Shown here: positions 4,053 through 50,768 of the stretch, in pieces
Layout: the number at the start of each line of letters is the position of its first letter
How positions within the stretch are numbered: position 1 is the first letter of the stretch
DNA from: an uncultured delta proteobacterium
GTDB taxonomy: Bacteria > Desulfobacterota > Desulfobacteria > Desulfobacterales > JAHEIW01
Direction of reading: 5' to 3'
Length of the DNA: 64,000 nt
Assembly (NCBI GenBank): GCA_963706575.1
Contig: CAVPNL010000009.1
Coordinates: 24,083 to 88,082 of the forward strand
Made by a program: the position numbers and the translations under genes
The notes under the pieces: model-generated
What the model saw: the letters and a program-made list of their open reading frames with translations, nothing else
Databases searched by the model: none
Told to the model about the DNA's origin: nothing

Positions 4053-4246
4053 TCGAAGAAAGTATTGACTTTTCCAGTGAACTGTGATGGATAAACTCAC
4101 TTAATTTTTGTTTGCGGTTGTATCATTTCCCATATAAATACCACCACTTGTCGCCGCGTCTCTTGATCTGCTGTTTTCTGCATGCATAGCGGCCTTGATT
4201 GCAGCCACCAAAACAGAAACTGGACCATATACCAAGGAGGCATAAA

Positions 4247-4684: not shown

Positions 4685-4687
4685 ACA

Positions 4688-5815: not shown

Positions 5816-5881
5816 TTGGGTACTGGGTATCAGGTATTGGGTAAATGCTGGAAGCCAGGTAAAACTAAAAGCCTGGTGCAT

Positions 5882-5968
5882 GAAGCAGAGCGCAGAGCGC
5901 AAAGCGTTGAAACAGGGAATTTCAATGAGACTTTCTTACCCTATGCCCCACGCGCTATGCACTATGCC
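5882..5968. repeat. Word-stutter inverted repeat (GCAGAGCG/GCAAAGCG arm vs CGCTATGC/CACTATGC arm)
   Basis: The left arm gaagcagagcgcagagcgcaaagcg and right arm ctatgccccacgcgctatgcactatgcc are imperfect reverse complements. Both are built from 8-nt words. Confidence 0.6.
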
Positions 5969-5971
5969 ATC

Positions 5972-6724: not shown

Positions 6725-6791
6725 GTCACCATTACCGGTCCAACATTCATTTGAATTCTAAGATAAAAACCTGATGGCAAATTACTTACAA

Positions 6792-6895
6792 CATAGAGCA
6801 TAGCGCTAAGGGCATAGCGTAAAAATCTCTGCATTCGGGCAGTCGAAGTCATCTTTTACGCTATGCGCTATGCCCCTTGCGCTTTTCTCTATGCA
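6792..6895. repeat. Word-stutter palindrome built from GCATAGCG words
   Basis: catagagcatagcgctaagggcatagcgtaaaa (left) faces ttttacgctatgcgctatgccccttgcgcttttctctatgc (right). This is predicted to form a long hairpin. Confidence 0.7.
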
Positions 6896-6898
6896 TTT

Positions 6899-7249
6899 TT
6901 ATATATCCGTCCCTTCTTTTTTCAGCAAATCGCGGTACCAGCAGGAAAACTCGTACATTCCTCTAAAATAATCGTCTTCGTTGACGATGCCGAGGGCGAT
7001 TTCAAGTACCCCGCGTCCAAAGGAATTACTGTATTCATCAGAGCTGCGAGATTGTAAAAACTCCCTGACCAGCATCTGGGTGGTCCGTTTGGTTTTATCT
7101 TTGCGGATGTCAATCGGGTCTTTGGGTTCTTCAAACGGGTCCCATTTATCATAGCCCTTTTTTAAAATATGCTTCTGGCGACGGGGGGACATACTATCGA
7201 AAACAGCCTGTTTTCGTTTTTCGGCTTCCTCAGGAGAAAATTCGGTCAT
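6899..7249 (-). CDS. Hypothetical protein (116 aa, charged, no recognisable domain)
   Basis: The ORF overlaps the stop of the upstream Cys-cluster gene by 4 nt (ATGA-type coupling). Codon usage is like that of its neighbours. Confidence 0.5.
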   Translation of the reverse strand: MTEFSPEEAEKRKQAVFDSMSPRRQKHILKKGYDKWDPFEEPKDPIDIRKDKTKRTTQMLVREFLQSRSSDEYSNSFGRGVLEIALGIVNEDDYFRGMYEFSCWYRDLLKKEGTDI

Positions 7250-7947
7250 ACGGTTCTCCTTCGATGTTTTTTAGCAGGAGGCGGCTCGGGGGGCTCTTCC
7301 TCCCCCACTCCAAGATAATCATCATCGTAAGTGGTAAGCAAGGCCATGGATAACGGTACCAACATATCCGACAATTTCAAATACCTGGATTTAAGATCCC
7401 GAATCAATTCTGCCGATATTTGCTGGAGCTGATTGTAGACGGCATCCAGATTCACAGTCGGGTATTGCTCGCCTTTTTCAAAGCCGGATTTTCCACAGGT
7501 ATGGCCCTCGCCACCAATGGCCGTCGGTATGCCATAGAAGCGACAGGTAAGCGGACGGTTGTCGTAAAGATCGCACAAATCCGTCTGGTTTAAAAGAGGA
7601 CAGCGGATCCGCTCCCGGGCCAGATCGGCAAGAATATCGTTTTCGCTTTTGCCGGCCTGTAAATCTTTATAGGCCCGGCGCTTGAGTTTGTGAACCCTGC
7701 GGTCCGCCTCATTTGCTTTTTCCAAAAGTTCGGCTTTTGCGCTTGCCCTAATTTTCTCGTTAAATTTATGGTTGATATAAAGGGCTTCGATCAGCGTTAA
7801 ATCAAACAATGCATAACAGCAGTCCGTACATTTTTCCTTGCACTTCACACATTCCGCATGCGCCTGTTTGACGCGCTCAAATGCGTCATCCGCATTAGAA
7901 ACCAGCGCTTCATATTTCTTAAAATAAGGTGTAAAATCAAAATCCAT
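7246..7947 (-). CDS. YkgJ-family cysteine-cluster protein (UPF0153 / CxxCxxCC Zn/Fe-chelating domain)
   Basis: CVKCKEKCTDCC cluster near the N-terminus and CPLL...LCDLYDNRPLTCRFYG in the second half, the typical layout of this family. Confidence 0.7.
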   Translation of the reverse strand: MDFDFTPYFKKYEALVSNADDAFERVKQAHAECVKCKEKCTDCCYALFDLTLIEALYINHKFNEKIRASAKAELLEKANEADRRVHKLKRRAYKDLQAGKSENDILADLARERIRCPLLNQTDLCDLYDNRPLTCRFYGIPTAIGGEGHTCGKSGFEKGEQYPTVNLDAVYNQLQQISAELIRDLKSRYLKLSDMLVPLSMALLTTYDDDYLGVGEEEPPEPPPAKKHRRRTV

Positions 7948-19484: not shown

Positions 19485-19570
19485 GCTCTAGATAATGCCA
19501 AACCCCGAGTAATCGGGGGACGGAAAGCCACGGGTCCGCCGGAGGTGGATGGCCGGGTTGCCTGAGGAGG
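19485..19570 (+). promoter_or_regulatory. c-di-GMP-I (GEMM-I) riboswitch aptamer
   Basis: UGCCAAACC-CCGA-GUAA-UCGGG-GGACGGAAAGCC-ACGGGUC...GGCCGGGUUGCC matches the GEMM-I signature: GGCAAACC, a stem capped by a GNRA tetraloop, GGGACGCAAAGCC, a second stem, and GGGUUACC. Confidence 0.72.
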
Positions 19571-19573
19571 CTT

Positions 19574-19613
19574 AAAAGCTGGGCAGCCCGTGAGTTGGTT
19601 GCTCGGCTTTTTT
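19574..19613 (+). terminator. Intrinsic terminator / riboswitch expression platform
   Basis: aaaagctgggca pairs with tgctcggctttt (including two G-U pairs) around a 14-nt loop, followed by a T-run. It ends 32 nt before the ATG at 19645. Confidence 0.6.
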
Positions 19614-19644
19614 GCTTGGGCCACCGGTTTCAAAAGGAGGAAAA

Positions 19645-21525
19645 ATGCAACTGTTCGGGGGAATCAATCCATACGAGAGTAACCTCTTTGGCTTCGGTTA
19701 CATCGATACCATTCAAAAACAGCGTGACGTCACAGGCTCGTTCAAGGGGCTTCCGGTTTCAAATCAGCGAGATCAGATGGACGACACCACACGCAATGTG
19801 CTGCGGATGCGCAAAGCCATGGAGGCGGTCCGGCAATTGATGCCGGCTTCAGAATCTGCCCAAATTGAAGTCGAGGTAGCTGCCAGCGCCACCTCGGCCA
19901 CCAGTCTTGACTTAAGCTCAAGCGGCACCGCAACGCCCACAACCCTGGAATCGACCGAAGAGGTCAATGCCTCGACGACTGCCTATTCGACGGACCCGCC
20001 CGAATGGACCGGTGCTTCGACCGCTCAGCCCACGATCAGCGGCGAATATGATGGCTCAAGCGGCACCGACACGCTCACTTTTGAAGTTAAAAAGGGGGGT
20101 ACCCTTGGTGGAAATCTGATTCTGATCAATGTTTACGATTCCAGCAACAATCAAATTGATAGTCTCAGTTTCAAAAAAGCAGACGGTGTCGATACGCCAT
20201 TCACCCTGTCCAACGGTTTGACGGTAACCTTCGGCGATGGGGATTTTGTGAAAAATGACAGCTTCACCCTGGAGGTTTATGACAACGTGGACAATGCGGT
20301 GAATCCGGACAATTCCTTCAACGGGACGGGCGCCGATGATCCGAATCTTCAATCGGGTCTCGATGTAACCAGTGGATCCTTTGAAATCAATGGGACCACC
20401 ATCGATGTCGCGGCGGATGATACGATTAACAGCGTGCTCGATAAAATCAATGATTCAGATGCCGGCGTGACAGCCAGCTACGACGCCGCTACCGAAACGG
20501 TATTGCTGACCCAGGACACCGCCGGCTCAACTCCGGATATTGTGCTGGCAAACGACACCTCCGGATTTGTCGCCGCCGTAAAACTGGATAGCGCGGTGGC
20601 CGTCCCCGGAGAAGATGGGACGGTAACCGAAGATCCTGCAACGCCTCTGGCGGAGGTGGATACCTTCTCCGCGGTGCAAAGCGGCAGCATCAGCGTCAAT
20701 GGCGTTTCTATCGACATCAACGTCGATACGGATTCATTAAACGACATCCTTGATAGTATTAGCGCCTCAGCGGCAGATGTCACCGCAAGCTACGACAGCA
20801 ACACCAAGCGGGTCACGCTGAGTGCTAACGACGCTGAAAGTCAACTCATTCTTGACAGCGGCACAACGAATTTTTTCCCGGCCGTGGAAATCACCGACGG
20901 TACCACTGAGCCGGTTAACGAAACCATAGAAGTACAGTCAGGCGGTGTGGATGCTGTAAAATCGTCCGATCTTACGTCTGAATATGCTGAAATCTACACC
21001 ACCGAACTGGACGCTACACTTGGTAAGGACCGGGAAGTCGCGGAAACACCCGTTACACCCTCGGACGCTAAAATGCTGGGCGAGCTGGTCAATATCATTG
21101 CCGATTCCATGAATGCATTGTTCAATGGTTCAGCAATCAGCTCGTCGCAAAGCACCGGAACCGAAGCGTTTCAACTTCAAGATGACGTTCGCAGTGCCGT
21201 CGCGTCATGGTTTGATTCCCAAGGATCTCAATTCAACACCAACTTGGGTATTGATTCCGATTCCGAAGAGTCTGAATTCAACACCGACTTTGGCATTGGT
21301 TTTGATTTTGAAAAGACAGATGGAAAGGTATTCAATTTCTCCCAGGCTAACCGAAGTCGATTTGAGGATGCTCTGGCATCCCCGCAGAGCGCGGCCGCGG
21401 TCCAAAAAGCGCTTTTTGGAATCGAATCCGGCGGGCTGTTCAACCAGCTGCACTCCGCCTTGACGGAAGCCGGCACCGATTTTGAAGTGGATCCGAGCGG
21501 CCTGTTTCTGGATGTAATGATATAG
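19645..21525 (+). CDS. Highly acidic Ser/Thr/Asp-rich protein with two FliD/flagellin 'IN'-motif repeats; no signal peptide
   Basis: The ATG at 19645 is preceded by AAAGGAGG. Repeats are SGSFEINGTTIDVAADDTINSVLDKINDSDAGVTASYDAATETVLLT...DTSGFVAAVKL and SGSISVNGVSIDINVDTDSLNDILDSISASAADVTASYDSNTKRVTLS...GTTNFFPAVEI. Confidence 0.7.
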   Translation: MQLFGGINPYESNLFGFGYIDTIQKQRDVTGSFKGLPVSNQRDQMDDTTRNVLRMRKAMEAVRQLMPASESAQIEVEVAASATSATSLDLSSSGTATPTTLESTEEVNASTTAYSTDPPEWTGASTAQPTISGEYDGSSGTDTLTFEVKKGGTLGGNLILINVYDSSNNQIDSLSFKKADGVDTPFTLSNGLTVTFGDGDFVKNDSFTLEVYDNVDNAVNPDNSFNGTGADDPNLQSGLDVTSGSFEINGTTIDVAADDTINSVLDKINDSDAGVTASYDAATETVLLTQDTAGSTPDIVLANDTSGFVAAVKLDSAVAVPGEDGTVTEDPATPLAEVDTFSAVQSGSISVNGVSIDINVDTDSLNDILDSISASAADVTASYDSNTKRVTLSANDAESQLILDSGTTNFFPAVEITDGTTEPVNETIEVQSGGVDAVKSSDLTSEYAEIYTTELDATLGKDREVAETPVTPSDAKMLGELVNIIADSMNALFNGSAISSSQSTGTEAFQLQDDVRSAVASWFDSQGSQFNTNLGIDSDSEESEFNTDFGIGFDFEKTDGKVFNFSQANRSRFEDALASPQSAAAVQKALFGIESGGLFNQLHSALTEAGTDFEVDPSGLFLDVMI

Positions 21526-30857: not shown

Positions 30858-33800
30858 ATGAAATTAAAAAATTTTATTTTTCTAATCGCCGCAATCTTAC
30901 TGCTGACCGCATCTGCCGGGGCTGAAGATGCTGCCCACCTTCAAATTCGCGGGCAGGCGCAAAAGGCTTACACCAATGGCAACTGGAAAGATGCGTTTGA
31001 CCTGTATCGCCAGCTGAGCCTGGAAATACAAAACGACCCCAAAAGAATCGGTAAAGATTTTACCCAGGCCTGGCAATGTCTGCGCCAGCTAAATCGATTA
31101 AGTGAACTGGACGCATTCCGCGAAAACGTCATTCAGCGCCACGCCGACAACTGGCGCCTGATGCAGGATGCCGCCCGCAGCTACAGCCAGAACGACCACG
31201 GGGGATATATGGTGGCCGGTGAATTCCACCGCGGCCATCACCGCGGCGGCGGCAAATATGTCAACGCCATTGCCCGTGATCGCGTTCGCGCCCTGCAGCT
31301 GGTGAAGCAGTCCATGGAACCGGCGGAAAAAGATCCGGCAAAATCAGAGGTCGCTCAATTTTACCTGCAGTTTGCCGGCCTTATTCAGCAGCACCGCGGC
31401 GCCAACCAAGCCTGGCGGCTGCAGTATCTGACCGATCTCACCCGGCTGCCGGACTATGAGCCCGGATACGGCTATGAATATGACCAGCGCACCCAGGGGG
31501 CACCGGTGGATGATGCGGGCCAACCCGTGTATCATGAACTTCCAGAAAGCTTTGAAACCGCTGCTTCAGACGGGGAACGCTGGCGCTGGCTGCTGGCAAG
31601 AGCCGCACAACTTAATTCAGGGCTGAATTCTTATGTGGACTATACCTGGGCTGCCTTTTTGCATCAGCAATTTGGTGTCCAGACGCTGGTCAATTATGGC
31701 GCCCTATACGGCCGCAGGCGTCCGCTGGATAAAGAAGATAAAGAAAAAGATCAAAGCAGCCCCTATGAAGTGCACACCTTAACCGATCAAGAAACTATCG
31801 CCAAACTGGCGGTGGGGGTACGGCGCTTTGATCTGCCCCGGGAATATAACTTTATTCAGATGTTCAAAGCCATGCTTGAGGACACCATCGGCGGTTATGC
31901 CGGTAATGCCGCTCAAACGCTGGCGCAAATTTATGAAAACCGCAGACAATATGACCGGGCCGTCAACTACTGGAAAATTTATGAAACGTATAACCGGTCC
32001 GTCGCCCGGCAGCGTATCGACCAGATCACCAAAAACTGGGGAGTATTTGAACCCGCCGGTATTCAGCCGGCGGGCACAGCCCCCGGCGTTGAATACCGAT
32101 TCCGCAACGCCCGTCAGGTGGAATTTGTCGCCTACCGCATCCGGGTCAACCGCCTTCTTGCGGATGTCAAAGCTTATATCCGCTCCCAACCCCGCAGACT
32201 GGACTGGCAAAAAGTAAACCTGAACAATATCGGCTGGCGCATCGTGCACGAAAATCAAACCCGCTATGTCGGCCAGCAGGTCGCATCCTGGCAAATGGCG
32301 CTTGACCCCGACAAGCACCACTGGGATCGCCACGTGACGGTCAAATTCCCCGATGCCCTCAAAGCTGCCGGGTCTTATCTGGTGGTGGCCAGGATGCCGC
32401 AAGGCAACAGCGCCCGCATCGTCATCTGGGTGGCCGACACGGTAATCGTTAAAAAACCACTTAAACAAAAAATGCTCTACTACGTGGCCGATGCGGTCAG
32501 CGGCAGAGCCCTTTCGGGGGTGGAAATTGATTTTTTCGGCTACCGCACCGAGCGCATTAAAGGAACCCAGCGTCATCGCGTGATTCACAAGCATTTAAAG
32601 AAGCAAACCGGTTCAGACGGCCTGGTGGTGATCAATCCGGCCGATATGTCCCAGCAAATGTCCTGGCTGGCCACCGTGGCCGATGGTGAAGGCCGTCTGG
32701 CCTTTCTGGGTTTTACCAATGTCTGGTATCCCAATTACTACGACACCGAATACAATCAGACCAAAACCCTGATTATGACCGACCGCCCTGTTTATCGACC
32801 GGCTCAGACCGTCAAGTTTAAGGCCTGGGTGCGCCATGCCAAATACGACCAAGAAGACACCTCAAGCTTTGCCGGCCGGCGTTTTACAGTACACATCCAC
32901 AACCCCAAAAATGAACAGATTTATTCCCAAACACTGACGGCCGATGCTTACGGCGGTATCGAAGGCGAATTTAAGCTGGTTGCCGAAGCCGCTCTGGGCG
33001 TCTACCGCATCTCCCATGGAGGCGGCAGCGTTTACGGCGGCCAGACCTTCCGGGTGGAAGAGTACAAAAAACCCGAATTTGAAGTCCTCGTGGAAGCCCC
33101 GGCGGAGCCGGTCATGCTGGGCGAAAAGATCACGGCTAAGATCAAAGCCGCCTATTACTTCGGCTCTGCGGTAACTGAAGCCACGGTGACGTATAAAGTG
33201 CTGCGCAGCGAGCACGACAGTCGCTGGTATCCGTCCTTTTACTGGGACTGGTTTTACGGTCCCGGTTACTGGTGGTATGCCTATGACTATCCCTGGTACC
33301 CGGGATGGGAAAACTGGGGCTGCCTGCGGCCCGTCTGGTCCTGGTGGCAGCACTGGCCGCGCCAGCAGCCCGAAATTGTGGCCGACGGCGAAGTTAAAAT
33401 CGGCAAAGACGGCACGGTTAACATTACTATCGATACCGCACTGGCCAAACTCATCCATGGCGACAGTGATCACCGCTATACCATCAAAGCCGAAGTCCGC
33501 GATCAGTCCCGGCGCACGATTGTCGGGCAGGGAGACGTGCTGGCAGCCCGCAAGCCTTTTAAAGTGTATGCCTGGCTGGAGGGCGGCCATTACCGGGTCG
33601 GCCATACCATTAAGGCCAGTTTCAAAGCCCAGACATTGGATCAAAAACCGGTCCGCGGTCAGGGTCAACTGAAATTGATGCGCATCACCTATCAAAACAA
33701 CAAACCGCAAGAAACGCAGGTTGCTCGATGGCCTTTAAATACCGACGCCGAAGGCCACGCCGCTCTGCAAATCCAGGCCTCCCGCCCAGGACAATACCGG

Positions 33801-36800
33801 CTCTCCTACACCGTCACCGATGCCAAAAATCATTCCATTGAAGGCGGCTATATTTTTACCGTGCGCGGCCAAGGCGATGACGGTGCCGCATACCGTTTTG
33901 CCAGAATCGAGCTGATCACCGATAAGGCCGAATATGCGCCCGGAGACACCGTGCGGCTGCAGGTCAATACCGACCGCCAGGGCGCTGCAGTGTTGCTGTT
34001 CGTGCGCCCGGTCAACGGAGTTTACCTGCCGCCCAAAGTACTGCCCATGAGCGGAAAGAGCGCTCTGGAAGAAATACGGATTTCAAAAAGAGATATGCCC
34101 AATTTTTTTGTGGAAGCGGTCACGGTGTACGACGGCAAGGTGCACAGTGACATCCGTGAAGTTGTGGTCCCGCCTGAAAAGCGGGTCCTCAACGTTAAGG
34201 TCACCCCTTCCAAAACAGACTATCGTCCCGGACAAAAAGCCAGGCTCAACCTGGAGCTGACGGATTTTTACGGCGAACCCTTTCAGGGATCCACCGTGAT
34301 CAGTGTCTATGACCGTGCGGTGGAATATATTTCCGGCGGTTCCAACGTTCCGGAAATCAGAAGCTTTTTCTGGAAGTGGCGGCGGCATCATCGACTAAAC
34401 CAGCAGTCCAATCTGGCACGCTGGTTTTATAACCTCTTAAAGAAAAACGAAATTCCCATGAAAAATATCGGGGCCTTCGGGCATCTGATGGTGCCGACGG
34501 CCCCCGGCAAGGGGCAGTCGCTGGAAGCGAAAAAAGCCCGGCCCCAGGTTGCGGCCGAAGCCGGTGCGGCCAGGGCCCCGTCACCGGCCGAGGCCGATGA
34601 ATCCAGCCCGGCTGTTCAGCTCAAAAAAGATGCTGTCGACCTGTTTGGCGACAAGGAACGCCAGGCCGGAAAACCTGAAGATCTGGTCCAGCCCAGCGTA
34701 CGCACGCAATTTGCCGACACAGCCTTCTGGTCGGGAAGTATAACCACAGACTCGGAAGGTAAAGCTGTGGTGGAATTCAGCATGCCCGAAAACCTGACCG
34801 GCTGGAAGGTGAACGTCTGGGCCATGGGCCATGGAACCAAGGTCGGCGAGGGTCGTGCCGATGTGGTCACGCGCAAGGATCTGATCGTGCGCCTGCAGGC
34901 ACCCCGGTTTTTTGTGGAAACCGATGAGGTCGTGCTTTCGGCCAACGTTCATAATTACTTAAAAAACCGCAAGACCGCTAAAGTCCTGCTGGAGCTTGAC
35001 GGTGGCTGTCTGGCACTGATCAAAGGCCAGAAACAAACACGAACGGTCTCGGTTGACGCGAACGGCGAAAAGCGGGTGGACTGGCGCGTTAAGGTACTAA
35101 AAGAAGGTGAAGCGGTGGTTCGCATGAAAGCCTTGACCGATGAAGAATCCGATGCCATGCAGATGCGCTTTCCGGTTTACGTGCACGGGATGGTTAAGCA
35201 GGTGCCTAAATCCGGCGTTATCCGCGCCAACCAGACCCGGGCCCGGATCAAATTTAAAGTCCCGGCAGCACGGCGGGTGGCGCAATCCCGTCTGGAGCTG
35301 CGGTATTCACCGACGCTGGCCGGCGCCATGGTGGATGCCCTGCCATACCTGGTCAGCTACCCTTACGGCTGCACCGAGCAGACCTTAAATCGTTTCCTGC
35401 CGACGGTAATCACCCAGCAAACATTAAAGCGCATGGGTGTCAATTTGGCAGATATTGAAAACAAGCGGTCCAATCTCAATGCGCAGGAAATCGGTGACGA
35501 TCAACAGCGCGCCGCACAATGGCGCCGCTATGATCACAGCCCGGTATTTGACGAAGACGAGGTGGCGGCCATGGTCAGCGCCGGCGTCAAACGTCTGGCC
35601 GCCATGCAGCTCTCCGACGGCGGCTGGGGCTGGTTCAGCGGTTATGGTGAACATTCCTATCCCCATACCACCGCTGTGGTCATCCATGGGCTGCAGATTG
35701 CCCGTGAAAACAAGGCAGCGATACCCGGCGGTGTGATCGAACGGGGCGTGCAGTGGCTCAAGGATTATCAGGCCAAAGAAATTGAGCGCCTGATTCTGTG
35801 GGACCGCACCAAAAAGAAAGGCAAATCCCGGGCCGATAACCTGGATGCCTTTGTCTACATGGTTTTGACCGATGAAGCCTTTGAAAATAAAAAAATGCGC
35901 GACTATCTATACCGCGATCGTAATTCGCTGGCGGTCTATGCCAAGGCCATGTTCGGCATGGCCCTGGTCAAAGCCGAAGACAGCCCGAAACTTGCCATGA
36001 TCATCAAAAACATCGAGCAATTTCTGGTGCGCGATGCTGAAAACCAGACCGCTTATCTGAATCTTCCCAACTCCAATTACTGGTGGTACTGGTACGGCTC
36101 CGAGTATGAAGCCCACGCTTACTATCTGAAGCTGTTGTCGCAAACGGATCCATCGGGTGAAACGGCATCCGGTCTGGTCAAGTATCTGCTCAACAACCGC
36201 AAGCACGCCACCTACTGGAACAGCACCCGCGATACAGCTGTGATCGTAGAAGCCTTTGCCGATTACCTGGCCGCCAGCGGCGAGGCCGCACCGGATCTGA
36301 CCCTGGATATCTTTTTTAACAATCAAAAAATGAAAACGGTTCGGATCACCGCCGAAAACCTGTTTACCTTTGACAACATATTCGTGCTCGAAGGCAAACA
36401 AATTCCTACCGGCAGCCACACGATTACGCTTAAAAAATCCGGCAGGGGCCCTGTCTACTTTAATGCCTACCTGGATTATTTTACCCTGGAAGACTTTATC
36501 ACCAAAGCGGGTCTGGAGATCAAAGTGCAGCGCCGGGTTTTTCGTCTAAAGGAAATCGAAAAAAAGATTAAAGATGCCGGTTCCCACGGGCAGGTGGTAG
36601 ACCGCAAGGTCGAAAGGTACGAGCGCGAACTCCTTGAAAATATGGCGGTTTTAAAAAGCGGCGATCAGGTTGAAGTGGAGCTGGTGATTGAAAGCAAAAA
36701 CGATTACGAATACCTGGTTTTTGAGGACATGAAAGCCGCCGGTTTCGAGCCGGTGGAGGTGCGCAGCGGTTATACCGGCAATGAAATGGGAGCGTACGTG

Positions 36801-36986
36801 GAGTTTCGCGACCAGAAGGTGGCCTTCTTTGTTCGCCGGCTGGCAAGGGGCAAACACAGCGTCAGCTACCGTTTGCGGGCGGAGATCCCGGGTAAATTCA
36901 GCGCGCTTCCCACCAGAGCATACGCCATGTACGCACCGGAACTCAAAGCCAATTCGGATGAGATTAAATTCATCATTAATGATTAG
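30858..36986 (+). CDS. Alpha-2-macroglobulin family protein with thioester motif (2042 aa)
   Basis: Signal peptide without a lipobox. An N-terminal region of about 400 aa is probably helical-repeat. Macroglobulin-like beta domains follow. Thioester YPYGCTEQTLNRF has CTEQ at 35371-35382. A C-terminal receptor-binding-like domain closes the protein. Confidence 0.88.
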   Translation: MKLKNFIFLIAAILLLTASAGAEDAAHLQIRGQAQKAYTNGNWKDAFDLYRQLSLEIQNDPKRIGKDFTQAWQCLRQLNRLSELDAFRENVIQRHADNWRLMQDAARSYSQNDHGGYMVAGEFHRGHHRGGGKYVNAIARDRVRALQLVKQSMEPAEKDPAKSEVAQFYLQFAGLIQQHRGANQAWRLQYLTDLTRLPDYEPGYGYEYDQRTQGAPVDDAGQPVYHELPESFETAASDGERWRWLLARAAQLNSGLNSYVDYTWAAFLHQQFGVQTLVNYGALYGRRRPLDKEDKEKDQSSPYEVHTLTDQETIAKLAVGVRRFDLPREYNFIQMFKAMLEDTIGGYAGNAAQTLAQIYENRRQYDRAVNYWKIYETYNRSVARQRIDQITKNWGVFEPAGIQPAGTAPGVEYRFRNARQVEFVAYRIRVNRLLADVKAYIRSQPRRLDWQKVNLNNIGWRIVHENQTRYVGQQVASWQMALDPDKHHWDRHVTVKFPDALKAAGSYLVVARMPQGNSARIVIWVADTVIVKKPLKQKMLYYVADAVSGRALSGVEIDFFGYRTERIKGTQRHRVIHKHLKKQTGSDGLVVINPADMSQQMSWLATVADGEGRLAFLGFTNVWYPNYYDTEYNQTKTLIMTDRPVYRPAQTVKFKAWVRHAKYDQEDTSSFAGRRFTVHIHNPKNEQIYSQTLTADAYGGIEGEFKLVAEAALGVYRISHGGGSVYGGQTFRVEEYKKPEFEVLVEAPAEPVMLGEKITAKIKAAYYFGSAVTEATVTYKVLRSEHDSRWYPSFYWDWFYGPGYWWYAYDYPWYPGWENWGCLRPVWSWWQHWPRQQPEIVADGEVKIGKDGTVNITIDTALAKLIHGDSDHRYTIKAEVRDQSRRTIVGQGDVLAARKPFKVYAWLEGGHYRVGHTIKASFKAQTLDQKPVRGQGQLKLMRITYQNNKPQETQVARWPLNTDAEGHAALQIQASRPGQYRLSYTVTDAKNHSIEGGYIFTVRGQGDDGAAYRFARIELITDKAEYAPGDTVRLQVNTDRQGAAVLLFVRPVNGVYLPPKVLPMSGKSALEEIRISKRDMPNFFVEAVTVYDGKVHSDIREVVVPPEKRVLNVKVTPSKTDYRPGQKARLNLELTDFYGEPFQGSTVISVYDRAVEYISGGSNVPEIRSFFWKWRRHHRLNQQSNLARWFYNLLKKNEIPMKNIGAFGHLMVPTAPGKGQSLEAKKARPQVAAEAGAARAPSPAEADESSPAVQLKKDAVDLFGDKERQAGKPEDLVQPSVRTQFADTAFWSGSITTDSEGKAVVEFSMPENLTGWKVNVWAMGHGTKVGEGRADVVTRKDLIVRLQAPRFFVETDEVVLSANVHNYLKNRKTAKVLLELDGGCLALIKGQKQTRTVSVDANGEKRVDWRVKVLKEGEAVVRMKALTDEESDAMQMRFPVYVHGMVKQVPKSGVIRANQTRARIKFKVPAARRVAQSRLELRYSPTLAGAMVDALPYLVSYPYGCTEQTLNRFLPTVITQQTLKRMGVNLADIENKRSNLNAQEIGDDQQRAAQWRRYDHSPVFDEDEVAAMVSAGVKRLAAMQLSDGGWGWFSGYGEHSYPHTTAVVIHGLQIARENKAAIPGGVIERGVQWLKDYQAKEIERLILWDRTKKKGKSRADNLDAFVYMVLTDEAFENKKMRDYLYRDRNSLAVYAKAMFGMALVKAEDSPKLAMIIKNIEQFLVRDAENQTAYLNLPNSNYWWYWYGSEYEAHAYYLKLLSQTDPSGETASGLVKYLLNNRKHATYWNSTRDTAVIVEAFADYLAASGEAAPDLTLDIFFNNQKMKTVRITAENLFTFDNIFVLEGKQIPTGSHTITLKKSGRGPVYFNAYLDYFTLEDFITKAGLEIKVQRRVFRLKEIEKKIKDAGSHGQVVDRKVERYERELLENMAVLKSGDQVEVELVIESKNDYEYLVFEDMKAAGFEPVEVRSGYTGNEMGAYVEFRDQKVAFFVRRLARGKHSVSYRLRAEIPGKFSALPTRAYAMYAPELKANSDEIKFIIND

Positions 36987-41224: not shown

Positions 41225-42016
41225 TTAAGTTCTTAAACATCGCAGCTTGGCCAGGTCTTCCGCATAGCCGTATAGGTGCAGTCCTTTGCTTTCGACAATC
41301 ATTTGACCGTCTTCGACGGCAATTTCTCCCGCCATGTATTCCTTTAGATTTTGAATGGCAGCCAGGTTGGCCGGAAACCCGTTCCACAAATCCCAGGACC
41401 TGAAATAAACAAAAAAATTAAGGGTATTATCCTGGATGCGGGTATCAATCGACCGCAGGCAGGGCGGATCCAGCAAGGTGAGATCAGAAGGATGCGCGAT
41501 TTGAAGTACCAATTGGTTGTTACGCTCGCCGAATTTTTTGTAAGTGTCAATCACCCACTCGATCTGGTTTAAATACAGCTGGCCGTCTTCTTCAAAAACA
41601 ACCGTTCCGTCGACTTCACGCTTATCGATAATTTCAGTATTGTCCGTTTGCCACCAATCGAGTTTATCGCCGGACAGCGGAACCTTTGTCAATCGTTCAC
41701 CATACGTATACGATTCACCGGGTTCCTTGCGTGCCGACATTAAGTATTCGATATAGGCGCGGTCATAGCCGGGCCCGCCGTAAATATAATCGTGTTCCAC
41801 CGGATTGGGAATGCCGCATGCCGGCGGAATGTCCGGAATCAGCGGATCGGTGCCGGGATGTTTTACATGACCCGTAAAATAATCATACTCCAATCGAGTT
41901 TGCCCCTCGTAGGATCCGCGATCAATAACAAAGCGCCGGCCGTGATCAAGGATATCATGAACCGCCTGAAACCATAAATCCGGTAAATCTCTTGCGTAAA
42001 TGTTATGAATGTCCAT
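41225..42016 (-). CDS. Divergent thymidylate synthase (ThyA-fold) family protein
   Basis: The active-site-like segment LDPPCLRSIDTRIQDNTLNFFVYFRSWDLWNGFPANLAAIQNL parallels ThyA PCH...QRS.D...G.PFNIASY. The N-terminal half carries large insertions relative to bacterial ThyA. Confidence 0.6.
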   Translation of the reverse strand: MDIHNIYARDLPDLWFQAVHDILDHGRRFVIDRGSYEGQTRLEYDYFTGHVKHPGTDPLIPDIPPACGIPNPVEHDYIYGGPGYDRAYIEYLMSARKEPGESYTYGERLTKVPLSGDKLDWWQTDNTEIIDKREVDGTVVFEEDGQLYLNQIEWVIDTYKKFGERNNQLVLQIAHPSDLTLLDPPCLRSIDTRIQDNTLNFFVYFRSWDLWNGFPANLAAIQNLKEYMAGEIAVEDGQMIVESKGLHLYGYAEDLAKLRCLRT

Positions 42017-42134: not shown

Positions 42135-45706
<3,572 letters not shown>

Positions 45707-45996
45707 ATCCTATTCCTTAATATTATATATAATAAAAAGATAATAATAAATAAGGGCTGTTCATAAAACCAATAACTCTGTAAAATTCTTAAATCATATA
45801 TAAATAGTTAAAAAAAAATGATCAAAAGATAACCGTTTCAATGGTGATAAGTGGGTAGATATCTACAGTAAAAATTAAATGTTGATAACATTGAATTTAT
45901 AAACACTGTATTAATAAAGTGTTGTTGAAAAAGAATATCCGGCTTATCTTTAATTTAAATATTTTATTTTAAATAGTTATAAAAAATAACACCCGT
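45707..45996. other. Strongly AT-rich intergenic region upstream of dnaN (candidate replication-origin/DUE or promoter region)
   Basis: Visibly AT-rich runs. Only degenerate DnaA-box-like 9-mers are present (tgttgataa at 45878-45886, tgttgaaaa near 45921). No perfect TTATCCACA was seen. Confidence 0.3.
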
Positions 45997-46527
45997 TTAG
46001 GATTTCGCATTGAGCCATTTTTTTATCAAGTATATTTCATGGCTTTGCCAGCGGTTCGATGTTCTTAATTTAATAAAGGTTTTATATAATTTTTCTAAAA
46101 ATTGCAAGATCTTATCATAAAGAAAGATTTTTTCTAAAACGCTTGCTTCCACGTCATCCGGGTTCTCGGGTGGTGCGATTTTCGGTGTTTTTAAACTGCT
46201 CAGATTTAAACTTTCACCCTTTAAAGTGAACTGCCATTTTTGCTGGGAAGATCGGTAAACCAGATTGAGTTCCGCCACCAGGGCACCATTTTGTAAGGCC
46301 ACCTTGGCTTCCTCAAGGCCGGCATCTTCACCTTTGATCGTAATTCGCTCAAACGCTTTTTTATGTTTTTTTTCAAGGACAACCCGGTTGCCGATTTCAA
46401 ATGAAGTTAAATCCGGATCTGCATTTCTCAAGATAGACGGGTCCTGTTCTATGACAAACCACAACCAGGTTAAAAACTCATCACCTAAAAATTTAAATCG
46501 GTTATAGGCTACCGCAATATCTAACAT
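45997..46527 (-). CDS. RdgC-like protein, C-terminal-half equivalent
   Basis: [12 protein letters not shown]..., [30 protein letters not shown]...[17 protein letters not shown] parallels the C-terminal third of E. coli RdgC (LTEWV..., [30 protein letters not shown]...IQFVMCDDGSLKRLKF). Confidence 0.5.
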   Translation of the reverse strand: [176 protein letters not shown]

Positions 46528-46539: not shown

Positions 46540-47154
46540 TTATTCCGCAAAATTTGTCGGAGAAAGTTTAAGGAGGAGATCTTTTTCAGTATCCGTCAAA
46601 CCTGAATCCAAATGGGCAGCGGTATAGGGAATCACCCGAATCAGACTTAAGTCGAACGATCTTAAAAACAATGTTTCCAATTCTTCATTTGGCCCCTTGA
46701 GGTTGGAAAAAAACCACAAAACCGAATCCTCATAATTCCAGATGATGTCATATACATTTGGGGTTGCCGGAACCTTTAGGTTTAACCGATCGATCACAAG
46801 ATCTTTTATGGTCTGCTTTTCGTTGCGGGACAGATATTGTCTACCGCTGTCAGCCAGGCGCTGGGCTGATTCGATCATAAAATGTTTTTTGATCACTTTG
46901 GACGGTATGGTTTTTTTATCAATTCGCAGGGCAAAAACCAGATAGGTCCCATAAGCATAAGTCGACCCGCCAAAATCAGGCTGGTACGGCTTTTCAAAAG
47001 ATGTCCAGCCAACCGCTTTTTCTGAAGCGTGATCATCTATTTCAGAAATCACATTTTTTTTAAGCCCGGCGGCAACCGTTTCAAGAACCGGCCTTTTAAG
47101 CCGGCCCTTAACCGTATAGCGTGTGATTGAATTTGAGGCAGACAACAAACCCAT
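46540..47154 (-). CDS. RdgC-like recombination-associated protein, N-terminal two-thirds equivalent
   Basis: GWTSFEKPY, LVFALRIDKKTIPSKVIKKHF and SRNEKQTIKDLVIDRL align by eye with RdgC segments [28 protein letters not shown] and KKTEKDSLKDEVLHSL. Confidence 0.55.
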   Translation of the reverse strand: MGLLSASNSITRYTVKGRLKRPVLETVAAGLKKNVISEIDDHASEKAVGWTSFEKPYQPDFGGSTYAYGTYLVFALRIDKKTIPSKVIKKHFMIESAQRLADSGRQYLSRNEKQTIKDLVIDRLNLKVPATPNVYDIIWNYEDSVLWFFSNLKGPNEELETLFLRSFDLSLIRVIPYTAAHLDSGLTDTEKDLLLKLSPTNFAE

Positions 47155-47324
47155 TGTTATGATGATTAACCTGTTTTGTATGAGAAATCCGTTTTGTTTA
47201 AAACTACTATATATAGTATATTATACAAATTAATATAAGTATATAGCGTGTTTATTAATATCTGACAAGCGAAATTTCCAAGAGACGATGTTGACTAAAT
47301 TGACCTGTTTCGGTAGGTGTGTTG

Positions 47325-50300
47325 ATGATGAAATTTATCGCTGACCTGCATGTTCATTCGAAATATTCAAGAGCCACCGCCAGGAACCTGGACCTTGAAA
47401 ACCTGTATATCGCCGCCCAGCTAAAAGGTGTTACCGTGGTGGGAACCGGCGATTTTACGTATCCGGCTTGGTCTGAAGAAATTTCGGAAAAACTGGTTGA
47501 GACCGAACCCGGGCTGTTTAAATTAAAAGCGGAATTGGCTCGGCAGTGCGACGCCCAGGTGCCGGAGTCCTGCCGAGGGCCGGTTCGCTTTATGCTGGTC
47601 ACTGAAATCAGCAACATTTACAAGAAAAACGGTCGAACCCGCAAGAATCACAATCTCGTTTTTGCACCGGACATAGAAGTGGCGCGCCAATTCAGCAACC
47701 GGCTGGATAAAATCGGCAATATTAAATCCGACGGCCGACCGATTCTGGGGTTGGATGCCCGCGACCTGCTCGAGACCTTGCTTGAAACCTCCCCAGATGC
47801 TTTTTTGATTCCGGCCCACATCTGGACTCCCTGGTTTTCAGTCTTGGGCTCCAAATCCGGGTTTGACTCCATTGAAGAATGCTTTGAAGATCTAACAGCC
47901 CATATTTTTGCGGTCGAAACCGGGCTCTCCTCGGACCCGGCCATGAATTGGCGGGTATCCTCACTGGACGGGTTTACCCTGGTGTCCAATTCGGATGCGC
48001 ATTCCCCTCTTAATCTGGGACGTGAAGCCAATTTATTCGATACCGAGCTTTCCTATCCGGCCATAAAATCAGCTCTGCAAACCGGCGACCCCGATCAATT
48101 TCTGGGGACTTTCGAGTTTTATCCCGAAGAGGGAAAATATCATATCGACGGACATCGGGCCTGCGACATTTCTTTCTGGCCAGCAACCACCCTAAAACAT
48201 GACGGAGTGTGCCCGGTATGTGGCAAGCCACTGACACTGGGCGTTTTATATCGTGTTGAAGAATTAGCCGACCGTAAAAAAGGCCAAAAACCGTCCCGCA
48301 GCGCCCCTTACTTCAGTATCATCCAGTTAAAGGATATCTTATCTGAAATATTTCGGGTGGGTCCCAATTCAAAAAGGGTCCAACAGGCCTATCAGGTTGT
48401 TTTGGATAGACTGGGTTCCGAATTCAACATTTTACAAAACCTGGATACCATTGCTATTGAACAGGCCGGCATTTCATTGCTTCCGGAAGCCGTTGAACGC
48501 ATGCGCCGCCAGGAAATCAATGTTGTTCCCGGATATGACGGACAATACGGCCGGGTCCAAATTTTTAAAGACCATGAGCGTTCCAGGTTGATGGGGCAGC
48601 AATCACTTTTTAAGGTCTCCATATCGCAGCCCCCCGAACCTGAAAACGACATTGCCCGCGAAGTCGGTCACAGTTTGCCCCCAAAACCTCCCGATACCGG
48701 GAACGACAAATTAACTAAAAATAAAGCCAAAGAGTTGAAGGCCGGGCCGGATATCCTTTTCAACCAGCTAAATGACCGCCAGCACCGGGCAGTGGAACAT
48801 CCCGATGGGCGCCTGTTGATCGTTGCCGGACCCGGCACCGGTAAAACCCGCACACTGACGATGCGTATCGCCCATTTAATGATCCGAAAAGATGTCTCTC
48901 CCGACAATATTCTGGCAGTGACCTTTACCCGTAAAGCCGCCCGGGAAATGCAGCAACGGCTGCGCGCGATTTTAGGCGATGCCCGCAAACGCCCGCTGGT
49001 GGCTACGTTTCATTCTCTGTGCTTTAAAATATTAAACGATCTAAAAAAAGAGGGAATGCAAGCGATCGTTGACGAGGATGAACGCAAAATCTTGCTACGC
49101 GAGGCCATTAAACAGGCCAAGGACCACGGGATTGCGGTTTCTCAAAAACCACAAAAGCTGCTGGACCGGATCATTGCGGCCAAGCAGCAGATTTTGAGTC
49201 CGGATGACTTAACCCAACCGGAAAATGTCACGGTTGATGCCCGCATGCTGGCCGAGGTGTATCATAGCTACCAGAATCTGTTATCCATTCAAGGATTAAA
49301 CGATTATGAAGATTTGATTTTTAAAGTCGTGCGACTGCTGGAAACCGATTCGATGGTCTGCAAAAGATACCGCAATCAATTTCAGCATATTTTTGTCGAT
49401 GAATATCAGGATCTAAACTACGGTCAGTATCGCATTATCAAGGCACTGGCGCCCCCCAACGCGTCAAATCGGAATCTATGCGTCATCGGCGATCCGGACC
49501 AGGCCATTTACGGTTTCAGGGGATCCGATGTGCGTTACTTTACCCGCTTTGTCGATGATTATCCCGATACCGCTGTTATTCAACTGACCCGCAATTATCG
49601 ATCGACGGAAACCATTTTAGATGCGTCGTTTCAGGTGATCCAGGACCATCGGCTGCATGCCGCTGATGCCCGTACTTATTCTGAGAAAGCTGGTGTTAAA
49701 ACCATCCGCATTCTCGAGCTTGCCAGCCCAAAGGCCGAGGCCCAAGCTATTGTCAGGATCATTGCGCAATTGGTGGGCGGCACCGGCTATCATTCCATCG
49801 ATACCGGTCTGGTAGATGATGCCAATCTGGCTTCCGCCCGCAGCTATGTGGATTTTGCCGTGCTGGTTCGGACCCATCAGCAGATAAAGAGGATTGGCGA
49901 GGTGTTCGATCAGGCCGGCGTACCCTTTCAGATTGCCAGCCGGCAAAATTCCCTGAAAAGCTGGGGGCTGCCGGAACTGATTTCCATCTTAAAAGTCGTG
50001 CAAAGCTGCGGCAGTGACGTTGATTTGCACAACAGCCTGCAACTGTTTTCAGTCGGCATCAATAAAACGGCCGCCGAGCATTTTAAATCCTGGTGCTATT
50101 CCAAAAAGTTTTCACAGCAACAGGGTCTGATCAAAGCCAAACGTTTTCCAATTCCGGGCTTAAGCCGTGCCCAACAGCAAAAGCTCATTGATTTTGGCGA
50201 ACAGTTGACGGGTATCGAAAACAGGATCGGCGATATGACGGTTGCCGAACAGCTACGGTATCTGTCACAGATTCCACAGCTCAGCGCCATTGTGAATAGC

Positions 50301-50768
50301 GAGCCCCGAGCCCGCGAGGCCTTTAACAGTCTGTTAACCCTGTCAGCGGATTACGGCGATAATATTGCTGAATTTTTAGCGAGTGCAGCTTTAGACACCG
50401 ATACCGATGCCTATTTGCCCCAGGCGGAGAAGGTGTCTTTGATGACCATGCATGCGTCCAAGGGATTAGAATTTCCGGTAGTGTTTATCGCCGGCTGTGA
50501 AAAGGATTTGATGCCGTTAAACCGCCAAGGCGCCGAACCGGCCGATCCGGCCGAAGAGCGCCGCCTTTTTTATGTGGCCATGACCCGGGCCATGGAGCGG
50601 TTGTACCTGACCCGGGCCAAAAAGCGCAGCGTTTACGGCGAACTCCTGCCCCGATCCCTATCCCCCTTTGTAGCCGACATTGAAAACCGCCTAAAAAAAG
50701 ATGATTCTCCAAAGCGCCAAAAGAAAAAAAAGAAGGAAGACAACCAAAAGCAGCTCAAGCTTTTTTGA
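47325..50768 (+). CDS. Fusion protein: endonuclease Q-like PHP nuclease (N-terminal ~430 aa) + UvrD/PcrA-type SF1 helicase
   Basis: EndoQ-like motifs: DLHVHSKYSRA, GTGDFTYPAW, SDGRP, IPAHIWTPW, VSNSDAHSPLNLGREANLF, EGKYH, CPVCGKPLTLGVLYRVEELAD, PGYDGQYGRVQIF. Helicase motifs: AGPGTGKT, VDEYQDLN, IGDPDQAIYGFRGS, TRNYRST, TMHASKGLEFPVVF, FYVAMTRA. The tail is Lys-rich. Confidence 0.8.
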   Translation: MMKFIADLHVHSKYSRATARNLDLENLYIAAQLKGVTVVGTGDFTYPAWSEEISEKLVETEPGLFKLKAELARQCDAQVPESCRGPVRFMLVTEISNIYKKNGRTRKNHNLVFAPDIEVARQFSNRLDKIGNIKSDGRPILGLDARDLLETLLETSPDAFLIPAHIWTPWFSVLGSKSGFDSIEECFEDLTAHIFAVETGLSSDPAMNWRVSSLDGFTLVSNSDAHSPLNLGREANLFDTELSYPAIKSALQTGDPDQFLGTFEFYPEEGKYHIDGHRACDISFWPATTLKHDGVCPVCGKPLTLGVLYRVEELADRKKGQKPSRSAPYFSIIQLKDILSEIFRVGPNSKRVQQAYQVVLDRLGSEFNILQNLDTIAIEQAGISLLPEAVERMRRQEINVVPGYDGQYGRVQIFKDHERSRLMGQQSLFKVSISQPPEPENDIAREVGHSLPPKPPDTGNDKLTKNKAKELKAGPDILFNQLNDRQHRAVEHPDGRLLIVAGPGTGKTRTLTMRIAHLMIRKDVSPDNILAVTFTRKAAREMQQRLRAILGDARKRPLVATFHSLCFKILNDLKKEGMQAIVDEDERKILLREAIKQAKDHGIAVSQKPQKLLDRIIAAKQQILSPDDLTQPENVTVDARMLAEVYHSYQNLLSIQGLNDYEDLIFKVVRLLETDSMVCKRYRNQFQHIFVDEYQDLNYGQYRIIKALAPPNASNRNLCVIGDPDQAIYGFRGSDVRYFTRFVDDYPDTAVIQLTRNYRSTETILDASFQVIQDHRLHAADARTYSEKAGVKTIRILELASPKAEAQAIVRIIAQLVGGTGYHSIDTGLVDDANLASARSYVDFAVLVRTHQQIKRIGEVFDQAGVPFQIASRQNSLKSWGLPELISILKVVQSCGSDVDLHNSLQLFSVGINKTAAEHFKSWCYSKKFSQQQGLIKAKRFPIPGLSRAQQQKLIDFGEQLTGIENRIGDMTVAEQLRYLSQIPQLSAIVNSEPRAREAFNSLLTLSADYGDNIAEFLASAALDTDTDAYLPQAEKVSLMTMHASKGLEFPVVFIAGCEKDLMPLNRQGAEPADPAEERRLFYVAMTRAMERLYLTRAKKRSVYGELLPRSLSPFVADIENRLKKDDSPKRQKKKKKEDNQKQLKLF

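Follow-up and report, generated by a model that had tools for sequence, protein, structure and literature searches.

The question raised by the locus described here is what a DNA repair nuclease of the endonuclease Q (EndoQ) type does with a helicase on the same polypeptide chain. The gene lies at positions 47325 to 50768 of a 64,000-nucleotide stretch of DNA (the window) from an uncultured delta proteobacterium of the Desulfobacterales (JAHEIW01; assembly GCA_963706575.1, contig CAVPNL010000009.1, positions 24,083 to 88,082 of the forward strand). The EndoQ literature deals with a stand-alone enzyme, and homologs in "Bacillus and Desulfovibrio" were mentioned without discussion of a helicase (PMC4357722). 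The model of EndoQ-initiated repair published in 2015 has the damaged segment removed "by helicase activity" and leaves the helicase unnamed (PMC4357722). We favour, with somewhat better than even confidence, a reading in which a single two-module chain would be tethered to the sliding clamp, nick 5' of deoxyuridine (dU), deoxyinosine (dI) or abasic (AP) sites and then unwind the DNA from the nick. The unnamed helicase of the 2015 model is an open slot in the pathway, which counts in favour of this reading. The observations on which it is built are the anatomy of the gene, the conservation of both active sites, two clamp-binding-type motifs, the pattern of fused and separate genes and a core-genome setting.

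Architecture of the fusion gene

The EndoQ-helicase fusion is encoded by a single uninterrupted plus-strand open reading frame (ORF), which extends in the ORF list from ATG 47325 or GTG 47319 to 50768 and specifies 1147 or 1149 residues. Antisense ORFs inside the gene are all at most 127 residues long in the six-frame list, and a Shine-Dalgarno-like GGTAGG is located just 5' of the start. As homologs mostly begin MKF or MKFIADLH, the second ATG (47328) is the likeliest start codon. The initial annotation had proposed one polypeptide composed of an EndoQ-like nuclease and a UvrD/PcrA helicase, and this was confirmed by the single ORF and by recognition of both modules at the level of sequence and fold. 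The motifs that it quoted (DLHVHSKYS, GTGD, SDGRP, PAHIWTPW, SNSDAHSP, LGREANLF, GKYH, CPVCGKPLTLGVLYRVEELAD and PGYDGQYGRVQIF) are all present in the translation, as are the Pro/Glu-rich linker and the Lys-rich tail. The tail is indeed Lys-rich but is not a mere poly-Lys extension, since a clamp-binding-type motif, QLKLF (residues 1143-1147), ends the protein; this motif and its internal counterpart QQSLF (residues 425-429) had both been overlooked. The gene is divided as follows, all features being on the plus strand.

47325..50768, plus strand: complete coding sequence of the fusion, 1147 residues and stop; alternative starts at GTG 47319 and ATG 47328 (ORF list, homolog N-termini, ribosome-binding-site-like GGTAGG)
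47325..48119, plus strand: EndoQ PHP catalytic domain, approximately residues 1-265 (residue-by-residue PfuEndoQ alignment)
48120..48323, plus strand: EndoQ Zn-binding domain, approximately residues 266-333 (alignment to Pfu C249/C252/C268/C271)
48324..48596, plus strand: EndoQ C-terminal helical domain, approximately residues 334-424, ending in the PGYDGQYGRVQIF strand (phmmer, Foldseek, AlphaFold2)
48597..48611, plus strand: internal clamp-binding-type motif CBM1, QQSLF, residues 425-429 (conservation, disorder)
48612..48749, plus strand: flexible Pro/Glu/Lys-rich linker, residues 430-475 (structure-prediction confidence, alignment gaps)
48750..50702, plus strand: superfamily 1A (SF1A) PcrA/UvrD-like helicase core, domains 1A/1B/2A/2B, residues 476-1126 (Pfam, PDB matches, Foldseek)
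50703..50750, plus strand: Lys-rich disordered spacer, residues 1127-1142, in place of the PcrA/UvrD C-terminal domain (end of PcrA alignment, structure-prediction confidence)
50751..50765, plus strand: C-terminal clamp-binding-type motif CBM2, QLKLF, residues 1143-1147 (conservation, consensus)

The full-length protein was modelled with AlphaFold2 from an alignment (A1) of 111 sequences that were 43-89% identical to the query. Two well-folded modules were obtained (mean predicted local distance difference test score, pLDDT, 76.4; predicted template modelling score, pTM, 0.51), and residues 425-472 and 1127-1147 had pLDDT values below 50. The structure prediction suggested with the initial annotation has thus been carried out, and both modules were recovered as folds. 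Foldseek aligned the N-terminal half to the EndoQ structures 5zb8 (target template modelling score, TM, 0.82 over approximately 431 columns) and 7k30 (target TM 0.79), and the helicase half to UvrD, PcrA and Rep (target TM 0.72-0.81 over approximately 670 columns, spanning the four subdomains 1A/1B/2A/2B). No solved chain spanning both halves was found by Foldseek in the PDB. Across homologs the linker is gap-rich and hypervariable, with a length of 21-115 residues, and the basic tails are conserved.

The nuclease half retains the active site of EndoQ

The NCBIfam model TIGR00375 matched residues 6-411 from end to end (model positions 2-374 of 374; 154.8 bits, E 4e-45). When residues 1-480 were compared with the PDB by phmmer, only EndoQ was matched (5zb8, 7k30 and 7k31; E ~4e-44), query residues 6-420 being aligned with residues 5-389 of the 400 in PfuEndoQ (5zb8, E 3.6e-44). 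Identity to the archaeal enzyme is approximately 28%. No Pfam family was detected in this half at E <= 0.01 in a copy of the database without PF27218, which is precomputed in the homolog tables. The helical domain was predicted with pLDDT values of 84-96 (residues 331-400). The view that the N-terminal ~425 residues constitute an EndoQ module is therefore upheld by the full-model TIGR00375 match and by intact PHP ligands, Zn site and helical domain.

The metal-site residues His8, His10, Glu76, His84, His139, Asp193 and His195 of PfuEndoQ, defined as ligands and studied by mutagenesis in PMC5961232, correspond to H9, H11, E94, H109, H165, D224 and H226 of the query. The Pfu pocket and wedge residues T142, W144, E167, G169, S171 and N191 correspond to T168, W170, E198, G200, S202 and N222, and all of them are identical. 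Roles have been assigned to these residues (PMC5961232; PMC8307549), and Gly169, Ser171 and His139 are said to exclude thymine and adenine from the EndoQ pocket (PMC8307549). In 120 full-length representatives taken from different 50%-identity clusters, all seven metal-site residues and pocket residues T168, E198, G200 and S202 were invariant; among the pocket positions that vary, W170 was kept in 108 and N222 in 106 of 121 sequences. The alignment predicts a Zn site formed by H277-x2-C280 and C296-x2-C299 with the CPVCG motif, an H-C-C-C variant of the archaeal C4 site. Its first ligand is His in 119 of the 121 sequences and Cys is invariant at the other three positions. The GHRxC sequence is also present in stand-alone bacterial relatives, so the His ligand is a trait of the clade and not a consequence of the fusion. 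From the conserved ligands and base pocket we infer that the EndoQ half would nick immediately 5' of dU, dI, deoxyxanthosine or AP sites and leave 3'-OH and 5'-phosphate ends; such 5' nicking of lesions has been demonstrated only for the archaeal and Bacillus EndoQ enzymes.

The second half is a PcrA/UvrD-type motor without the usual C-terminal domain

The Pfam families PF00580 (residues 482-747, E 8e-74) and PF13361 (residues 752-1099, E 7e-43) were both matched at full length. The nearest solved relative is PcrA (1pjr, E 4e-89, residues 478-1126), and further relatives of known structure include M. tuberculosis UvrD1, D. radiodurans UvrD, E. coli UvrD and Rep, the matches to PcrA, UvrD and Rep ranging from E 1e-61 to 4e-89. 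These family matches and the structural matches of both halves are far beyond chance. The motor contains Walker A GPGTGKT (K507), motif II DEYQD (692-696), motif III GDPDQAIYGFRG (722-733), motif IV YRS (758-760) and motif VI VAMTRA (R1088); for motifs Q, Ia and V the assignment is that of the full-length Pfam matches. Residues K507, D692, E693, G722, Q726, R759 and R1088 were invariant or nearly so in the 120 full-length representatives. With both active sites conserved, both activities are under selection. The Foldseek TM values of the helicase half were higher for DNA-bound closed forms.

The alignments terminate at residue 648 of the 724 in PcrA and at residue 652 of the 745 in D. radiodurans UvrD, that is, approximately 70-90 residues before the C-termini of these enzymes, when only 21 residues, all disordered, are left in the query; it follows that the PcrA/UvrD C-terminal domain is absent. 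In PcrA and UvrD this Tudor-like domain binds RNA polymerase, UvrB or MutL and repair partners. The description of the second half as a complete SF1A helicase is upheld by the PF00580 and PF13361 matches, the motifs and the four-subdomain fold. Given these motifs and this fold, the motor would be expected to have 3'-5' polarity and, together with a partner protein, to start unwinding at a nick.

Two clamp-binding-type motifs

The protein ends in ...KRQKKKKKEDNQKQLKLF, the last five residues being QLKLF, and QLxLF forms the extreme C-terminus of essentially all full-length homologs. Among 120 diverse representatives the pattern Qxx[LMIF][FLMWY] was present within the last 12 residues of 106, where the background rate of these proteins would predict 1.8%, and the strict form Q[LM]x[LM]F in 72, against 0.06% expected by the same measure. 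Conservation of the clamp motifs is far above chance. QL[SD]LF or QLxLF is the accepted consensus for binding to the β clamp (PMC4549789; PMC4858679 Suppl. S1). The internal motif QQSLF is located at the exact end of the EndoQ fold, just before the hypervariable linker. Its Q, L and F are conserved in 97, 95 and 98 of 121 sequences, respectively, the two middle positions being free, and Q425 and F429 are invariant in the 111 sequences of alignment A1. Stand-alone bacterial EndoQs end in QxxLF-COOH at the position of CBM1, for example QLTLF (locus L066) and QLALF (L072). Both motifs of the fusion are in segments predicted to be disordered, as short linear motifs should be. In archaea, the C-terminal PCNA-interacting protein (PIP) box of EndoQ binds PCNA with a KD of 55 nM and is needed for stimulation of nicking by PCNA (PMC4858679).

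Fused, split and solo forms

A search of a collection of 5.8 billion proteins returned more than 120 full-length relatives (~1135-1190 residues, 60-100% identity) from independent contigs, mostly of Desulfobacterales, and a second search seeded with a member from Caldilineaceae returned another 120, several of them from complete chromosomes. In the databases these relatives go under the names "UvrD-helicase domain-containing protein", "TIGR00375 family" and "PcrA". An exhaustive HMMER search with residues 1-440 gave 1072 clusters (50% identity) at E <= 1e-30, and nearly all of the best 150 were 1000-1270 residues long. When one genome per GTDB species was considered, an EndoQ-module relative was found in at least 587 genomes, the best 80 of which were used for comparison of the loci. 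Complete fusions of 1058-1194 residues occupied approximately 58 of the 80 loci. The fusion occurs in at least seven phyla (Desulfobacterota, Chloroflexota (Caldilineae), Planctomycetota, Spirochaetota, KSB1, Gemmatimonadota and Rhodothermaceae being the groups in which it was found). The distribution survey contradicted the assumption that the architecture is rare: within this bacterial branch of EndoQ, the fusion is the form that predominates. Across phyla, identity to the query is 57-73% for the EndoQ half and 35-52% for the helicase half. Some fusion homologs (P0343, P0355, P0358, P0359, P0361 and P0365) reach 1280-1527 residues, and their best local alignments cover only 37-57% of the Caldilineaceae query, a sign that the linker or helicase region may hold large insertions or additional domains.

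In two of the 80 loci, from Ca. Aceula (L066) and a member of Planctomycetales (L076), an EndoQ gene of 429-433 residues is followed by a separate helicase gene of the same family (483-554 residues), with a 10-nucleotide gap in one case and a gene overlap in the other.

L066, 6001-8965: split EndoQ and helicase operon
L076, 4731-7462: split EndoQ and helicase operon

The separate helicases have 554 and 483 residues, compared with ~670 in the fusion, and part of the accessory subdomains may be missing from them. Locus L080 has the same order of EndoQ and helicase, with the helicase degraded. Both products of each split operon carry a clamp-type motif at or near their own C-terminus, those of the helicases being QLKLFLQ and QMKLF. 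Each half thus brought its own motif to the fusion, which keeps both.

Four Desulfobacterales loci (L005, L036, L049 and L063) encode only an EndoQ of 426-460 residues at the syntenic site (~3647-7400), with no helicase within 6 kb. The QxxLF motif is also lost in L036, L063 and L016. Because the four solo EndoQs keep every catalytic, pocket and Zn residue, the nuclease is an autonomous module, and the helicase is its facultative but recurrent partner. The coexistence of fused, split and solo forms, a Rosetta-stone pattern, lends independent support to a functional link between the halves, and the proposal that the fusion puts incision and unwinding in one protein may be regarded as strengthened by the split-gene forms.

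Genomic context

The neighbours of the fusion gene are two rdgC-like ORFs, dnaN, a gene for an SLT transglycosylase and one for an alkaline phosphatase, and the remaining window is ordinary core chromosome. As previously noted, dnaN begins 1.6 kb upstream of the fusion gene, with the two rdgC-like ORFs between them; its identity was recognised by eye from the translation.

44588..45706, minus strand: dnaN (β sliding clamp), predicted docking partner; context, outside the gene (translation recognised by eye)
47155..47324, no strand assigned: presumed promoter region, an AT-rich intergenic stretch from which the rdgC-like pair and the fusion gene diverge (sequence)

In Desulfobacterales, gyrB, dnaN and the rdgC-like N and C ORFs are arranged on one strand, and the EndoQ-helicase gene and then the SLT gene run divergently on the other. 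Among the 80 loci dnaN was found in 27 (upstream, on the opposite strand), gyrB in 25, the rdgC-like pair in 23 and SLT in 20-24. No partner recurs across phyla: clustering of the ORFs of the 80 loci recovered only this Desulfobacterales synteny (dnaN, gyrB, the rdgC-like pair and SLT). The EndoQ module had no matches in 50,697 phage records, and was found on one of 72,556 plasmids, a 733-kb replicon that encodes it as a stand-alone "endonuclease Q family protein"; an origin from mobile elements was rejected on these counts. The context argues for a housekeeping role in repair or replication, and against a role in defence or in a mobile element.

The rdgC-like ORFs (46540-47154 and 45997-46527, both on the minus strand) belong to a pair of ~204 and 175 residues that is conserved in 23 Desulfobacterales loci, always between dnaN and EndoQ, and this conservation indicates that there are truly two genes here, and that no frameshift has split rdgC. 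The first ORF has a weak Pfam RdgC match (28.6 bits, N-terminal third of the model); no Pfam match was obtained for the second. Promoter and terminator scans gave counts at or below the shuffled expectation, and no LexA/SOS-type box was recognised by eye in 47155-47324. The divergent intergenic region contains AT-rich palindromic elements at 47190-47260, e.g., CTATATATAG within ...ACTACTATATATAGTATATTATAC..., which could be an operator. Rfam and repeat scans of the fusion-gene region revealed nothing relevant.

Further upstream, dnaN and gyrB (42135-45706, minus strand) overlap by 4 nucleotides; recF is absent between the two genes, as is dnaA from the upstream side of dnaN. A 290-nucleotide spacer precedes dnaN (45707-45996) and has a very high AT content (GC 0.26 in 45600-45999). 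DnaA boxes gave 17 matches across the window (14.3 expected), with no clustering at the dnaN spacer or elsewhere, and the GC skew is weakly suggestive of a nearby origin. A 263-residue ORF beside gyrB (41225-42016, minus strand) may encode a divergent ThyA-like or nucleotide-modifying enzyme: it has a weak match to part of the thymidylate synthase model (positions 101-213 of 266; 38.7 bits), and 15 related loci keep a similar ORF next to gyrB. Elsewhere in the window, a c-di-GMP-I-GGC riboswitch aptamer (19488-19566, plus strand; Rfam RF03167, 67.8 bits, above the gathering score) is located just upstream of a 637-residue ORF (19612-21525), and 30858-36986 (plus strand) encodes a bacterial alpha-2-macroglobulin of 2042 residues with MG2, bait region, A2M, TED and MG10 domains.

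Comparison with known systems and published work

The fusion shares with EndoQ (PfuEndoQ PF1551, TkoEndoQ TK0887 and Bacillus EndoQ; TIGR00375/COG1379) its three domains from end to end, the metal ligands, the pocket residues T142/E167/G169/S171/N191 and a sliding-clamp docking motif directly after the fold. It differs from the archaeal enzymes in having a bacterial QxxLF motif instead of a PIP box, His instead of Cys as the first Zn ligand and only ~28% identity, and from the stand-alone enzymes in the covalent attachment of a linker, helicase and tail of ~720 residues. All the helicase motifs and the four-subdomain fold are common to the fusion and PcrA, UvrD and Rep. Unlike these helicases, the fusion attains only about half of the equivalog cutoffs, carries a Lys-rich tail and QLKLF in place of the C-terminal domain of ~70-90 residues and possesses an N-terminal nuclease that is, by homology, lesion-specific.

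RecB, AddA and AdnB, which were among the more distant Foldseek matches, also combine an SF1A motor and a nuclease in one polypeptide. In these enzymes, which work in heteromeric complexes, the nuclease is a C-terminal PD-(D/E)XK domain that attacks DNA ends during the resection of double-strand breaks, whereas the fusion has an N-terminal PHP-fold nuclease, a tail of only 21 residues after the motor and no conserved partner subunit. The proposed logic resembles, by analogy only, that of RepD-PcrA and MutH/MutL-UvrD, in which a site-specific nick is the entry point of an SF1A helicase, the nicked strand is displaced and a clamp-bound polymerase resynthesises it. In these systems, which serve plasmid rolling-circle initiation and mismatch repair, respectively, the nickase and the helicase are separate proteins that interact non-covalently, and what directs the nick is an origin sequence or hemimethylation, not a damaged base. 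The GajB protein of Gabija is similar in that its PADLOC profiles match the helicase half; the fusion differs in having no GajA ATPase-TOPRIM partner, no defence-island context and a core syntenic site.

Supplementary Fig. S1 of Shiraishi et al. (2016) lists bacterial EndoQ homologs, ten of which have 405-464 residues and approximately 34 of which have the motif at residues 941-1244 (PMC4858679). The long homologs tabulated there include those of Desulfobacterium autotrophicum (QLDLF, 1152-1156), Caldilinea aerophila, Geobacter metallireducens, Zymomonas mobilis, Desulfovibrio vulgaris, Sorangium and Rhodothermus (Rhodothermus marinus); the text is silent on the nature of the extra ~700 residues, the internal motif and the split operons (PMC4858679). 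In agreement with the initial annotation, no functional study, characterisation or description of an EndoQ-helicase fusion was found in the literature searched, although a remark may exist in the 2017 report on EndoQ of Bacillus pumilus or in the 2021 PNAS article on the EndoQ-DNA structure. The novelty was nevertheless overstated, homologs of ~1000-1240 residues with C-terminal clamp motifs having been tabulated in 2016. What is new is the identification of the extra part as a PcrA/UvrD-type motor without the usual C-terminal domain, together with the recognition of a further, internal clamp motif, of split operons and solo genes and of synteny with dnaN.

Proposed mechanism and alternative explanations

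In the mechanism that we favour, one or both QxxLF motifs would first tether the protein to the β sliding clamp, which may also stimulate it, as the motifs and the analogy with archaeal EndoQ and PCNA suggest. The EndoQ half would then flip out uracil, hypoxanthine, xanthine or an AP site and nick immediately 5' of it, leaving a 3'-OH and a 5'-phosphate. Subsequently, the tethered SF1A motor would load at the nick on the intact strand and move 3'-5' toward and past the lesion, peeling off the lesion-bearing strand with its 5'-phosphate, while a clamp-bound polymerase would extend the 3'-OH directly behind it. This step is modelled on SF1A polarity and on the action of PcrA with RepD at plasmid origins and of UvrD with MutL at a 5' nick. 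Finally, a 5' flap nuclease or 5'-3' exonuclease would remove the displaced strand and a ligase would seal the product. A more far-reaching version, which we offer only tentatively, is a bivalent, clamp-anchored 'nick-and-peel' machine whose two QxxLF motifs might fill both clefts of one β2 ring or be handed over between clefts. Incision at lesions by EndoQ would thereby be coupled to strand displacement by the helicase immediately in front of a clamp-bound polymerase. The machine would then amount to a complete and widespread bacterial pathway, hitherto unrecognised, for replication-coupled removal of uracil, hypoxanthine and AP sites, and unwinding by a UvrD-type helicase would be the missing step after EndoQ incision generally.

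Several points weigh against the favoured mechanism. The TIGR00375 score of 154.8 bits is below the curated equivalog cutoff of 326.6, though the full length of the model is covered, and the helicase half misses the cutoffs for PcrA (453.7 versus 911 bits), UvrD (334/321 versus 965/1144) and Rep (337.8 versus 951). Orthology to the characterised enzymes is consequently not established: the EndoQ half is best described as a divergent bacterial branch, and the helicase half, to judge from its sequence, as belonging to the PcrA/UvrD/Rep family without being orthologous to its housekeeping members. In the AlphaFold2 model (pTM 0.51) the modules are not confidently packed against each other, so no fixed inter-module geometry can be claimed and hand-off at the nick is not structurally dictated. 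Clamp binding is predicted from a short motif only. The helicase evolves much faster than the EndoQ half, and its loss from several Desulfobacterales orthologs with intact EndoQ implies that it is dispensable for some EndoQ function. Biochemical or genetic data on fused members were not found in the literature searched. The remaining probability goes largely to variants that make the helicase either the principal player at forks or a search motor.

The first of these variants, which we consider unlikely, supposes that the protein is primarily a replication-fork or housekeeping helicase of the PcrA/UvrD type that rides the β clamp, for example to deal with roadblocks or stalled forks, with EndoQ as an accessory end-cleaning or AP-site nuclease. 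PcrA is the top profile match of the helicase half (453 bits), the strongest consensus clamp motif is on the helicase end, the split-operon helicases carry a motif of their own and the gene adjoins dnaN and gyrB. The PHP domains of PolX are described as 3'-5' exonuclease, AP endonuclease and 3'-phosphoesterase (PMC6616362). However, the N-terminal half is not a generic PHP domain but a full-length EndoQ, with the Zn and helical domains and the residues of the pocket that discriminates uracil and hypoxanthine in EndoQ all conserved. It is also the better conserved half, the helicase being the part lost in some lineages, and this helicase lacks the PcrA/UvrD C-terminal domain and reaches about half of the equivalog cutoffs.

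In the second variant, to which we assign a low probability, the helicase would be a lesion-search motor, in which clamp-anchored, ATP-driven scanning of newly replicated DNA feeds EndoQ and nick translation by Pol I follows the nick. The stimulation of archaeal EndoQ nicking by PCNA (PMC4858679) is in line with such a role. Stand-alone EndoQ suffices in many lineages, and the flexible linker and the absence of a fixed interface fit tethered scanning. SF1A enzymes, however, translocate on single-stranded DNA, need a nick, gap or end to load and are not known to scan intact duplex, and the model appears closest to DNA-bound, unwinding-competent conformations, although this is weak evidence.

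We regard as distinctly improbable a third explanation, in which the protein would defend the cell against phages or other foreign DNA by destroying invading DNA that contains uracil or is deaminated, much as pairs of a nuclease and a UvrD-like helicase do in defence systems. Fusions of nucleases and helicases are frequent in defence, PADLOC models of the UvrD-like GajB match the helicase half with up to 310 bits, and a review relays the suggestion of an antiviral role for Bacillus EndoQ (PMC8307549). The GajB matches are nevertheless generic, restricted to the helicase half and lower than the 453 bits of PcrA, and no GajA-like or other defence partner is nearby. The site by gyrB and dnaN is a conserved core site across an order and not a variable island, the phage and plasmid counts given above (0 of 50,697 and 1 of 72,556 records) speak against such a role, and the clamp-binding motifs point to host replication and repair. 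Finally, a chimeric join or frameshift that merged two adjacent genes, for which one might cite the few lineages that do have the halves as separate adjacent genes, is effectively refuted by more than 200 full-length fusions from independent assemblies, including the complete genome of Desulfonema magnum and Caldilineaceae chromosomes, and by an in-frame linker whose length varies by whole codons.

Implications

For the step that follows nicking by EndoQ, which the 2015 model assigned to an unnamed helicase, the fusion and, in some lineages, the operon pairing provide genomic evidence as to which helicase takes part, at least in bacteria. The presence of the fusion in hundreds of species of at least seven phyla, among them such tractable organisms of the 2016 table as Geobacter metallireducens, Zymomonas mobilis, Desulfovibrio vulgaris and Rhodothermus marinus, makes the hypothesis directly testable, and two clamp-docking motifs in one chain would make a useful model for the sharing of the β clamp between repair enzymes and polymerases. 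A more precise annotation could be given to thousands of database entries that now bear only the name "UvrD-helicase domain-containing protein" or "TIGR00375 family". The fusion probably marks an unstudied pathway for repairing bases in DNA that have been deaminated.

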